DNA of 64,000 nucleotides, from contig JAAILG010001117.1 in the NCBI GenBank assembly GCA_012026655.1, forward strand, positions 1 through 64,000, written 5' to 3'. This document shows positions 31,013 through 37,306 of the stretch, one piece after another. The position numbers and the translations under genes are program-made. The stretch is from Hydrolagus affinis (Eukaryota). The stretch's first letter is position 1; each line of letters starts with the position of its first letter. The notes beneath the pieces are model-generated. The model was given only the letters and a program-made list of their open reading frames with translations. It searched no databases and was not told the DNA's origin.

Positions 31013-34000
31013 ATGGTATCAGTGCAGAATATCTGCTGCATCGGTGCGGGGTATGTTGGGGGTCCGACCTGCAGCGTCATTGCACAGATGTGCAAAGACA
31101 TCACCGTGACTGTGGTGGATGTGAACCAGGATCGGATTAAAGCCTGGAATTCCAACCAGCTCCCCATCTTCGAGGTGAGGCTAAATTTCACCCACAGAAT
31201 ATCAATTCCACCCCTCAACCCAACACGCACACACAAAATACACAGTCAATTCACTTTTCAAATGCCAGGATTATTTATCTATTATTAAGTTCACCACTCT
31301 GCTAAATTGTCTCCCACTGTGTGGAATTTGAGAGAGAGATTGAAAGAAAAGACTGAAATTTGGGGATTTATTTTCTATAAAATAAACCGTAACCATTTTT
31401 AGCGAGGTAACAATTTTCCTTATGTCCAAAGATTTGAACAAAGGTAAGTTTATAATGTGTTGTAAGAGTACAGTATTGTACTTATGGGAGAGACATCTTA
31501 GCCTCTTGTCATGTGGAATCAGTTGTCAAACTCCCTTTGGGGTGAAATGATGTGGCACATCCCCAGGACTTATTTAAGAATCGTTCCGTCCTCCCCCAAG
31601 TTTCATGTTAGGCACCCCACCATCCCTGCCCTCCATCCTTCCTGATCCCAACTCCCAGCTCGGATCCAAATGCCTGACTGTCCAGCGCCTTGGGACATTT
31701 TCCTGGCGTGAAAGGCGCCGTGTGAATATAATTTATTGTTGTTGAAGATTCCTTAGGCTCTGGTTGAAATAACACAAATCCCTGTGGCTCCAAGGCTAAG
31801 TCTCTTAAGGTGTTAGTCTGTCCCTGTCTCACTGCACAACCTGTTCAGCACTGCCCATTGCCTGCTGAATGGTCTCTGCTTACAGACACCATCGTGGCTT
31901 TGTGGCCTTAGAGTTGTGGCACGATTAATTGCTCGTCATTCACGTGGTTGGTGGGGGGAGGGCAGTAGAGAGTGATAGGTACAAACTATCCGATGAACAA
32001 AGCACTCACTATGCAATTGCAGGACAGTGTAGTGAATAGGACTCATTCATTGCATTGGAGTTGCAGCCATGAGCTGCTTGTGTTCATTCAGCGATGGAGG
32101 AAATAAGTGTTCTGTGTGAGCACCTTATGTCAGATCCTTACTCAAATCCAACCGACTGTCGATGGTGATTGATGAATAGCGGGACAGAATTAGATGAGGG
32201 AGGTTTAATGTTGTGCATGGGAATGGGGTGGATTTCTGATTCAATAATGGTCAGTTAGTTGTTTTATTCCATGTAAAATTTGGACCTAACGTGAAGTTTG
32301 TCACAACAGCCTGGCCTGCAGGAGGTGGTGGAGTCTTGCCGTGGGATCAACCTTTTCTTCTCCACAGACATCGACGCCGCCATCAAAGAGGCTGATCTGG
32401 TGTTTATATCGGTAAGAAAGGGAGCGATTCTCTCCCTGTACGTATCTCTGTAATACTGTTTCCTGCTCACTGAATTAATTCTCTTTGCTCTGGAGCAGTC
32501 CCACAATAGAGCACAGTGCTCTGAGACACCACCCAGTGTGGGGGGTGCTATATAAATGTAAGTTGTCATCATCGAACAATATAGTCAAACCCATTCAAGC
32601 AACCATCCCCTGTTAACTACTAACTTTGAATAATCCGCACAGTCACATTTACATACCAGCAATCTCTTACTTATGGGCCACCCTAGTATGAAGGCAACCT
32701 AGAGAGATTGAAGCCAGTTTTGACTGCATTTGGAGGTTTGGGGTCTGAATTTAGATGAGATGAATATTCAGATAGCCAACGTGAGTGATCTGAGTGTGTT
32801 AAGACTGGTACCCCCTTGTCTGTGCGACAGGTGAACACTCCCACCAAGACCTTTGGGATTGGGAAAGGCCGCGCTGCTGACTTGAAGTATATCGAGGCCT
32901 GCGCCAGGAGGATCGCTGAGGTGGGCAATGGCTGTAAGATCGTGGTGGAGAAGAGCACGGTGCCGGTCAGGGCTGCAGAGAGCATCCGCAGGATATTCAA
33001 CGCCAACACCAAGTCCAGCCTCAATCTCCAGGTAAGACAGTAACACTGGCTGCCGGTTCATAATAATAATCATCATCATCATACTTCCATTTGTTGTAGA
33101 ATTGATTATCGTGTCATTTCAGACTTCTCACTCCTGAAAAGAGCTTCACAGAGTATGTTGTAAAGTGGATGATTGATTTGTTTATTTTATGGGTGAAACG
33201 TGGCAGCCAATTGTGCACAGCAGTGCACCACAAATAGTTGTGGATTTAGTGACCACGTTTTATTTTGGAAGGATTACTACTCTCCCACCAAATCGACTAA
33301 CAACTGGGTTCCTACTTACTGAGGCATGTGAAGTAAGGAAACCTGCCTACGGTTTCATCCCGCTCGGGATATCAAACTCCTGCCCACTCGCTTGGAAAGC
33401 GAGTTCTCTTAACAGGACTTGATGTTGTTTGATACTTTATGAAGATACTTTATATCATTATGTTTTACGTTGGGAGTGTAAAACAGGGCTCTGGATGTCA
33501 GAGACTAATTTCTTTGTGGATGTGGTTGAGAGTTGAGCAGCACGGTGATGGGGTTCCCTGTATTGGCTGTTTTACAGGTACTATCCAACCCCGAGTTCTT
33601 GGCTGAAGGAACAGCCATTTCTGATCTGAAAAATCCAGACCGGGTCCTGATCGGTGGGGACGAGACACCTGAGGGACAGAAGGCTGTGCAGGCTCTACGG
33701 AGTATCTATGAACGCTGGGTCCCCAACAACAAGATCATCACAACCAATACCTGGTCATCTGAACTCTCCAAACTGGTACAGCATTCTCTCTTACTCTGGG
33801 GGATGATGTATGCAGTGAGTGGTACAAGGCTAAAGCACACTACACACTTGTCTATTGGAGTTGTATTGAAACTAATGCCGGGTTTTAATCAGTATTTTAA
33901 CCATCAAATTATATTAATATTAATCATAATACAGTACTAATTCCTGCATTTGATATAGCAACGTATCACGTTGTTAGGAAGTCTGAAAGTGCTTGCTTCA

Positions 34001-37000: not shown

Positions 37001-37306
37001 GAAAGGCATGATACGAATCTTATTTGTTGCTTTTGTTGTTCTATCTTCTGTTAAGATTGTTTCTGCCTTTTCTTAAAATGCCTTTAATATAGAACCTGGG
37101 AGAAGGCCCTGTTTATATTCTTCCTATTCACTCTCTGCTTTCATCCCCCTCCCCCCCCAACCTCCCTCCCTCCCTCCCTCCCTCCCTCCCCTTAACAGGT
37201 GGAGACCATAGGAAAGAAAGTGACTGAGCGAATACCTTTCACAGCCAACAAAGACATCTCCAGGATCGACCTTCAAGCTCCTCCGGCAAAGAAGCTAAAG
37301 ATCTAA
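31013..37306 (+). CDS. UGDH: UDP-glucose 6-dehydrogenase (495 aa), UGDH or a UGDH paralog
   Basis: Exons 31013-31174, 32310-32411, 32831-33031, 33578-33775, 34628-34775, 34922-35016, 35278-35408, 35567-35706, 36062-36153, 36798-36908, 37199-37306 (1488 nt). Rossmann motif [47 protein letters not shown], catalytic [27 protein letters not shown] at 38102. Confidence 0.96.

Follow-up and report, generated by a model that had tools for sequence, protein, structure and literature searches.

An ancient second UDP-glucose 6-dehydrogenase gene of jawed vertebrates, UGDH-B, in the IK-HARS-DND1 block of the chimaera Hydrolagus affinis

The DNA analyzed here, a window of 64,000 nucleotides (positions 1 to 64,000 of contig JAAILG010001117.1) from the chimaera Hydrolagus affinis, harbors a complete gene for UDP-glucose 6-dehydrogenase (UGDH) at positions 31013-37306. 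This gene, termed UGDH-B, is a true paralogue of the UGDH known from human, and the duplication that separated the two took place before the split between cartilaginous and bony fishes. The data as a whole are best explained by an ancient UGDH-B that arose as the beta-subgenome copy of the jawed-vertebrate allotetraploidy (2R-JV), was widely kept, was repeatedly lost and has an ordinary UGDH function; we regard this explanation as very probable.

Homologues were collected by a search with exon 3 of UGDH-B and a search with the canonical UGDH of reedfish. Together these gave 164 matches, from which 27 unnamed ones were dropped, leaving 137. The best matches of exon 3 were 'UGDH-like' proteins of coelacanth, sturgeons, herrings, eels, bichirs, salmonids and sharks with about 87-96% identity, with canonical UGDH behind at 81-87%; the reedfish search added the canonical copies of Callorhinchus milii and zebra shark, two lamprey types and hagfish. 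An unrooted tree was calculated from 56 rows, made up of the protein of the window plus 55 named matches, with truncated isoforms and near-duplicates mostly excluded. Clade A of this tree (20 rows, support 100/99) contains fox, C. milii and zebra shark, clade B (33 rows, 99/97) contains the window protein, and both hold cartilaginous fishes as well as bony vertebrates. The three cyclostome rows are located outside the two clades (93/96). Within clade B the window protein is sister to the elasmobranch sequences (100/97) and is the sole holocephalan member among the sequences compared. It shares 93% identity with the B protein of the smooth-hound Mustelus and 87% with that of coelacanth, compared to 81% with fox UGDH and 78% with the A protein of C. 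milii. Approximately unbiased (AU) tests on 26 rows under the models LG+F+G4 and LG+C10 rejected orthology of the window protein to A (p 5e-50 and 3e-5, respectively) as well as a duplication restricted to chondrichthyans (p 2e-10 and 3e-6). As sharks and bony vertebrates occur in both clades and a shark-only duplication is rejected, the duplication predates the divergence of chondrichthyans and osteichthyans. A preliminary description of this DNA had proposed a second UGDH, naming a translocated 1:1 orthologue and a recent duplication as the outcomes that would overturn it; the protein falls outside clade A, both outcomes are rejected under both models, and the second UGDH stands as a separate clade. 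That a single UGDH orthologue was relocated, or that the gene is a recent lineage-specific duplicate or retrocopy, is hardly credible. The lack of an A copy of H. affinis itself among the sequences compared speaks for such a reading and weighs against ours. However, p is at most 3e-5 for the corresponding topologies, the protein is nearer to the B proteins of Mustelus and coelacanth than to C. milii A, and of the ten introns of UGDH-B, at least three occupy positions also used in A.

The gene model was obtained by a brute-force search for AG/GT sites around the exon ends. The coding sequence of 1488 nt on the forward strand consists of 11 coding exons encoding 495 amino acids plus the stop codon, and all introns (10/10) are of the GT-AG type (Table 1). 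Two stop-free models resulted, which differ solely by a NAGNAG acceptor of exon 10 (495 vs 494 amino acids). The rebuilt model agrees with the complete gene of 11 coding exons and 495 amino acids described before, also in the sequence of both termini, and the NAD-binding and catalytic cysteine motifs said to be intact are both present as GxGxxG and Cys276. The exons match all three UGDH domains (UDPG_MGDP_dh) in Pfam, PF03721, PF00984 and PF03720 (NAD-binding, central and UDP-binding). With exon 4, solved UGDH chains are found in the PDB at an E value of about 3e-33, and the PDB matches make the fold evident. All 14 tested A-type isoforms of 427/429 amino acids miss exactly residues 89-155, which correspond to exon 3 of UGDH-B. 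In human UGDH, the c.265-6 variant implies an acceptor at c.265, which matches the end of UGDH-B exon 2 at c.264, and human exon 8 begins at codon 303 (V303I splice variant), like UGDH-B exon 7 (PMC12493151, available part). Intron positions common to A and UGDH-B are therefore found at codons 88/89, 155/156 and 302/303, at least three of ten. This indicates duplication at the DNA level and not retroposition, in agreement with the preliminary description, which had ruled out a retrocopy.

UGDH-B was also analyzed for its predicted function. A set of 91 functional or disease positions, compiled in part from papers, covers the NAD fold, the Thr131 loop/alpha6, catalytic and substrate residues, the interface and disease sites. 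UGDH-B harbors the mammalian residue at 88 of these positions. The three differences are D145N, M306I and Y367F, and isoleucine at position 306 is the cyclostome state in 3/3 sequences. Residues 129-144, the Thr131 loop/alpha6 switch, are identical in UGDH-B and mammalian UGDH, and D145N follows this stretch. The catalytic and substrate residues C276, K220, E161, N224, D280, T131 and R442 are all retained (numbering checked on a PDB alignment), and no departures occur at near-invariant columns. Human UGDH oxidizes UDP-glucose in two NAD+-dependent steps and thereby feeds hyaluronan, proteoglycan and glucuronide synthesis (PMC12493151, available part). It is feedback-inhibited by UDP-xylose via the Thr131 switch (PMC11713868, available part), and the effect of its C-terminal tail is set by length, not by sequence (PMC10201532, available part, citing Keul et al.). 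The preliminary description was correct in that the termini of UGDH-B, with MVSVQNICC at the N-terminus, differ from the human protein. However, these differences are no sign of novelty: the N-terminus is variable in both clades and the tail comprises 28 amino acids vs 29 in mammals, so the idea that different termini imply a different function was rejected. To judge from its sequence, UGDH-B is most likely an ordinary, UDP-xylose-inhibited UGDH. It would convert UDP-glucose to UDP-glucuronate by two NAD+-dependent oxidations via Cys276, and it is predicted to form hexamers that are feedback-inhibited by UDP-xylose via the Thr131 switch and to bear a disordered tail about as long as that of the human enzyme. 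Its retention is probably due to split expression or dosage rather than to new chemistry. 'Ugdh-2' of little skate (LE00538), which is assigned to B only by neighbouring gene ids, shows expression in the pectoral fin during development (baseMean 5531), which makes a dead gene unlikely. It shows an anterior/posterior difference of +1.88 log2, the direction of which is unusable, as Alx4 and Pax9 are negative and the posterior marker Grem1 is too.

Nine diagnostic columns drawn from the tree set distinguish the clades and were used to sort the 137 named matches into 92 A, 43 B-like (including 3 cyclostomes) and 2 unclassified records, one of which, Rhinophrynus, falls in B by tree. The gnathostome B records number 41, of which 4 are chondrichthyan and 37 are from bony vertebrates. 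Among fishes, the latter comprise coelacanth, lungfish, bichirs, sturgeons, paddlefish, arowana, eels, clupeids, smelt and salmonids, and among tetrapods salamanders, a caecilian, three basal frogs, tuatara, gharial, tinamous and kiwi. Both copies are present, on different contigs, in coelacanth, reedfish, alewife, European eel and axolotl. No B sequence of a mammal, neognath, squamate, acanthomorph or otophysan occurs among the named representatives of the 90% clusters, on which alone these absences are based. These absences, together with the human and anole gene table, suggest that UGDH-B seems to have been lost several times after its retention. The preliminary description had assumed that the second UGDH was lost in bony vertebrates, which is contradicted by the 37 records and the five bony species that carry both copies. 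It had further linked the gene to the cartilage skeleton, a link that loses its basis through the wide distribution in bony vertebrates and for which no support was found. That the second UGDH persists in cartilaginous fishes only, disappeared from bony vertebrates and serves the cartilage skeleton is thus very improbable, its distribution part being refuted, although UGDH-B is the more constrained copy in chondrichthyans (see below), the skate copy is well expressed in the fin, and human and anole lack UGDH in the block (PMC2764143, available part). UGDH-B is neither a new kind of system nor an innovation of the cartilage skeleton. Eels hold two B clades, and the Conger copies (P0009/P0026) are located on contigs of 83.3 and 65.2 Mb; these two clades are probably copies from the teleost whole-genome duplication.

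UGDH-B most likely originated in 2R-JV as the beta-subgenome copy, with human UGDH as the alpha copy, as judged by synteny. We take the block in the window to be equivalent to chicken chromosome 13 and human 5q31, and human UGDH to lie on a segment of the GGA4 type. DUF2615, which we take to be the SMIM14 domain, is fused to UGDH in four A-type gene models, and this fusion places A in a 4p14-type neighbourhood. For the chordate linkage groups (CLG) I, Q and F, chicken GGA4 represents 2-alpha and GGA13 represents 2-beta (PMC10972751 Supp Table 6), and skate LER11 corresponds to GGA13 and 2-beta (PMC10115646 SI Table 3, available part); such alpha and beta segments stem from the gnathostome allotetraploidy. 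With equal contig size as a label for the same chromosome, the contigs of UGDH-B and DND1 agree in four of six species (Mustelus, 103,476,532; axolotl, 1,309,048,778; Microcaecilia, 247,732,340; Apteryx rowi, a 1,236,583-bp scaffold), and by the same proxy A and DND1 lie on different contigs in axolotl, coelacanth and C. milii, the last with A on a 139.2-Mb and DND1 on a 19.6-Mb contig. The gene id of skate Ugdh-2 is numbered among Cd74, Nudcd2, Cxcl14, Ccnj-3, Csnk1a1 and Cxxc5 in a supplement, which are presumably genes of human 5q31-34.

Several points weigh against an origin in 2R-JV. The assignments of the window block to chicken chromosome 13 and human 5q31 and of human UGDH to a GGA4-type segment are our assumptions, and contig size is only a proxy for linkage. 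In coelacanth (Latimeria) UGDH-B is located on a 41.8-Mb contig and DND1 on a 172.2-Mb contig, which may be due to a translocation or to different assemblies, and Discoglossus is uninformative. The nearest listed neighbour of skate Ugdh-2 is Cxcl14, not IK or HARS, so the local order differs. Furthermore, when three distant outgroups were included, the AU test rejected only one of eight placements of the root or the cyclostomes, the best likelihood was obtained for (B,(cyclostomes,A)), ahead of the 2R-type trees by 0.1-1.8 log-likelihood units, and a quick outgroup tree was rooted inside B, with long-branch warnings. However, the outgroup branches measure 1.6-5.6 substitutions per site vs about 0.1 inside the ingroup. 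Branches more than ten times longer than those of the ingroup make the root unreliable, and the result is an absence of signal, not evidence for the first round of duplication (1R).

We consider it unlikely that A and B separated earlier, at 1R or by a segmental duplication before the gnathostomes, and that B reached the chr13/5q31-type block later. The AU test retains (B,(cyclostomes,A)), (A,(cyclostomes,B)) and a split of A plus Lethenteron-like from B plus Petromyzon and Myxine (p 0.23-0.63), the quick rooted tree groups cyclostomes with A (Shimodaira-Hasegawa-like approximate likelihood ratio test, SH-aLRT, 96), and lampreys seem to have two distinct UGDH types (P0131, P0136). On the other hand, these placements depend on the unreliable root, and in the tree without outgroups a single branch (93/96) separates the three cyclostome rows from all others. 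Both loci fall on segments published as the alpha and beta derivatives of one 1R copy (PMC10972751), and the cyclostome hexaploidy leads one to expect extra lamprey copies. For the second-round (2R) ohnologue proposed in the preliminary description, this means that synteny makes an origin in 2R likely, whereas the gene tree by itself gave no reliable root.

The two copies evolve at different rates in different lineages. At eight of the nine diagnostic columns B carries the cyclostome majority residue, which indicates that the human-type copy is derived. Measured from the duplication node, B lies at a distance of 0.16-0.18 and A at 0.33-0.34 in chondrichthyans, compared to 0.44-0.58 and 0.24-0.29, respectively, in amphibians. 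In relative-rate tests with two outgroups B was slower in the chimaera (41:19, p 0.006; 42:16, p 0.0009) and in shark (p 0.001 and 0.0003), whereas the relation was reversed in frog (p 0.04 and 0.009). The tests were not significant for coelacanth, reedfish, axolotl and tinamou, and for herring significance was reached with only one outgroup of the two. The 16 tests have the stem branches in common, assume cyclostomes as outgroup, mostly pair sequences across species and carry no correction for multiple testing. In cartilaginous fishes UGDH-B is the slower-evolving copy (p below 0.01). Its tail is identical at 28/28 positions between H. affinis and Mustelus and at 22/28 between H. affinis and Amblyraja, compared to 15/29 in the A pair. 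The protein terminus K[KR]x[KR]x, present in 49 of the 56 tree rows, in our view resembles a monopartite nuclear signal; human UGDH is cytosolic and nuclear (PMC10538703, available part). The Lethenteron 'like' UGDH has a poly-Q/H N-terminus and a long branch, and is without the basic end motif. C. milii A (P0129) shows A164S, F265S, S349T, P401A and V412I at near-invariant columns, which may reflect relaxed constraint or errors in a single database record. Gharial (Gavialis) B (P0120) has nine departures at such columns, including D280N, R311H and G101R, and may be a copy in decay, though this single record could carry errors as well. A role swap between the copies is conceivable, but we consider it rather doubtful: the beta copy would be the main constrained enzyme in chondrichthyans while alpha drifts, and constraint would flip in tetrapods, with B speeding up in frogs, decaying in gharial and being lost independently in mammals, neognaths, squamates and most teleosts.

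Compared to human UGDH, a clade A protein of known structure (PDB 3PRJ, 2Q3E and 5VR8), UGDH-B has a near-equal length, the same three Pfam domains and, as described above, shared intron positions, Thr131 switch and functional residues. Unlike clade A genes, it is located in the IK-HARS-DND1 block and not beside SMIM14. Records named 'UDP-glucose 6-dehydrogenase-like' in NCBI/UniRef from Mustelus, Amblyraja, Huso, Polypterus, Alosa, Ambystoma, Gavialis and Apteryx are orthologues of UGDH-B by tree, and it is such records that are linked to DND1 in the four of six species given above. Retention of a beta copy in chondrichthyans with loss in some later lineages is also seen for the differentially retained 2R ohnologues of little skate, e.g. 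wnt6b and cspg5 (PMC10115646, available part). Unlike these cases, UGDH-B was kept in both ray-finned and lobe-finned lineages, and its slower evolution relative to alpha in chondrichthyans is contrary to the general trend of faster beta copies in the same source. UGDH-B thus illustrates that a copy from the beta subgenome can be better conserved than the corresponding alpha copy.

UGDH-B is already present in databases as 'UGDH-like' and 'Ugdh-2'. No publication that treats the UGDH-A/UGDH-B pair as one family was found in a literature search that excluded subscription papers, several supplements and the ohnologue database. The same search yielded no paper with 'ugdh' and 'elephant shark' and none with 'ugdhl', and a Xenopus gene that we presumed to bear the latter name was not confirmed. 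Papers mentioning 'UDP-glucose 6-dehydrogenase-like' concern plant or buffalo omics by title, and 'ugdh' is absent from the supplements of PMC8302630 (file 4 not covered), PMC10927551 (file 1 not covered) and PMC13450315. Reviews describe UGDH as unique, essential and conserved between humans and frogs (PMC12493151, available part). The description applies to mammals, whereas sharks, sturgeons, salmonids, eels, axolotl and basal frogs have a second copy, which could mask knock-outs. Database names also mix the copies, as the B records of coelacanth, tuatara, caecilian and tinamou are labelled plain UGDH. Moreover, the A/B pair offers a natural comparison for the tail-length rule of UDP-xylose feedback.

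Table 1. Coding exons of UGDH-B and other genes located in the 64,000-nucleotide window
Feature	Position	Strand	Remarks
UGDH-B coding exon 1	31013..31174	+	aa 1-54, ATG; NAD-binding GxGxxG 31043-31060; PF03721 E 1e-15
UGDH-B coding exon 2	32310..32411	+	aa 55-88; ends at c.264
UGDH-B coding exon 3	32831..33031	+	aa 89-155; Thr131 loop/alpha6 allosteric switch, T131 at 32957-32959
UGDH-B coding exon 4	33578..33775	+	aa 156-221; E161 and K220
UGDH-B coding exon 5	34628..34775	+	aa 222-271; central domain, N224; PF00984
UGDH-B coding exon 6	34922..35016	+	aa 271-302; catalytic Cys276 at 34936-34938, K279, D280
UGDH-B coding exon 7	35278..35408	+	aa 303-346; first codon 303
UGDH-B coding exon 8	35567..35706	+	aa 346-393; PF03720
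UGDH-B coding exon 9	36062..36153	+	aa 393-423
UGDH-B coding exon 10	36798..36908	+	aa 424-460; alternative acceptor possible 3 nt downstream
UGDH-B coding exon 11	37199..37306	+	aa 461-495 and stop
UGDH-B 28-aa C-terminal tail	37220-37303	+	ends in K-K-x-K-x basic motif
ARM-repeat gene, probably TMCO6 (name from position)	4255..8736, limits approximate	+	open reading frames, ARM-type feature matches
NDUFA2-type exon, CI-B8 domain	11178..11441	-	PF05047 E 1e-14
IK/RED	14306..21359, 5' limit approximate	+	PF07808 and PF07807
CRAL-TRIO (Sec14-like) gene	38348..39785, limits approximate, first exon not located	-	PF00650 E 7e-18
HARS (histidyl-tRNA synthetase)	43074..52317	+	domain matches
DND1	55901..57936	+	domain and protein matches
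ZMAT2 N-terminal exon	63338..63440	+	gene continues past window end; PDB match E 2e-11

The neighbouring genes agree with the 5q31-like setting recognized in the preliminary description. The order in human and anole is Tmco6, Ndufa2, Ik, Wdr55, Dnd1, Hars, Hars2 and Zmat2, and UGDH is absent from this list (PMC2764143 Table 1, available part). The NDUFA2-type exon, IK, HARS, DND1 and ZMAT2 of the window match this block, and UGDH-B and the CRAL-TRIO gene, which are arranged tail to tail, occupy the place expected for WDR55. The scanned stretches of the window yielded neither WDR55 nor HARS2. None of the 86 frames of at least 52 amino acids between positions 19600 and 30950 showed a credible Pfam match that would point to a hidden gene such as WDR55 between IK and UGDH-B, though shorter exons could escape. 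A weak Pox_E6 match in this interval and a CSL-finger match at 41372-41518 were below the cut-offs and were taken as chance. No Pfam match was obtained for the ARM-repeat gene in the profile scan of the window exons. The best matches of DND1 are from C. milii: its main exon shares about 85% identity with two records of that species, vs 69-74% with sharks and rays, as expected for a chimaera other than C. milii.

HARS, DND1, IK and ZMAT2 are all encoded on one strand, HARS-DND1 being inverted relative to human and anole (PMC2764143, available part). Bird gene models with HARS-DND1 read-through (P0200, P0201, P0267) indicate that the two genes are adjacent and co-oriented in birds, as in the window. 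The CRAL-TRIO gene is absent from the human and anole table for this block (PMC2764143, available part) and may be another gene that was lost from amniotes here. At about 570-2500 the reverse strand harbors exons of a divergent kinesin-motor-like gene with a weak match to KIF14 (E about 0.08) and a P-loop-like stretch that looks degenerate. A repeat of about 300 bp, judged by eye to resemble a short interspersed element, recurs on both strands in introns and intergenic stretches (e.g. 19960-20260, 23700-23970, 24470-24770 and 27850-28200) and yields spurious similar open reading frames.

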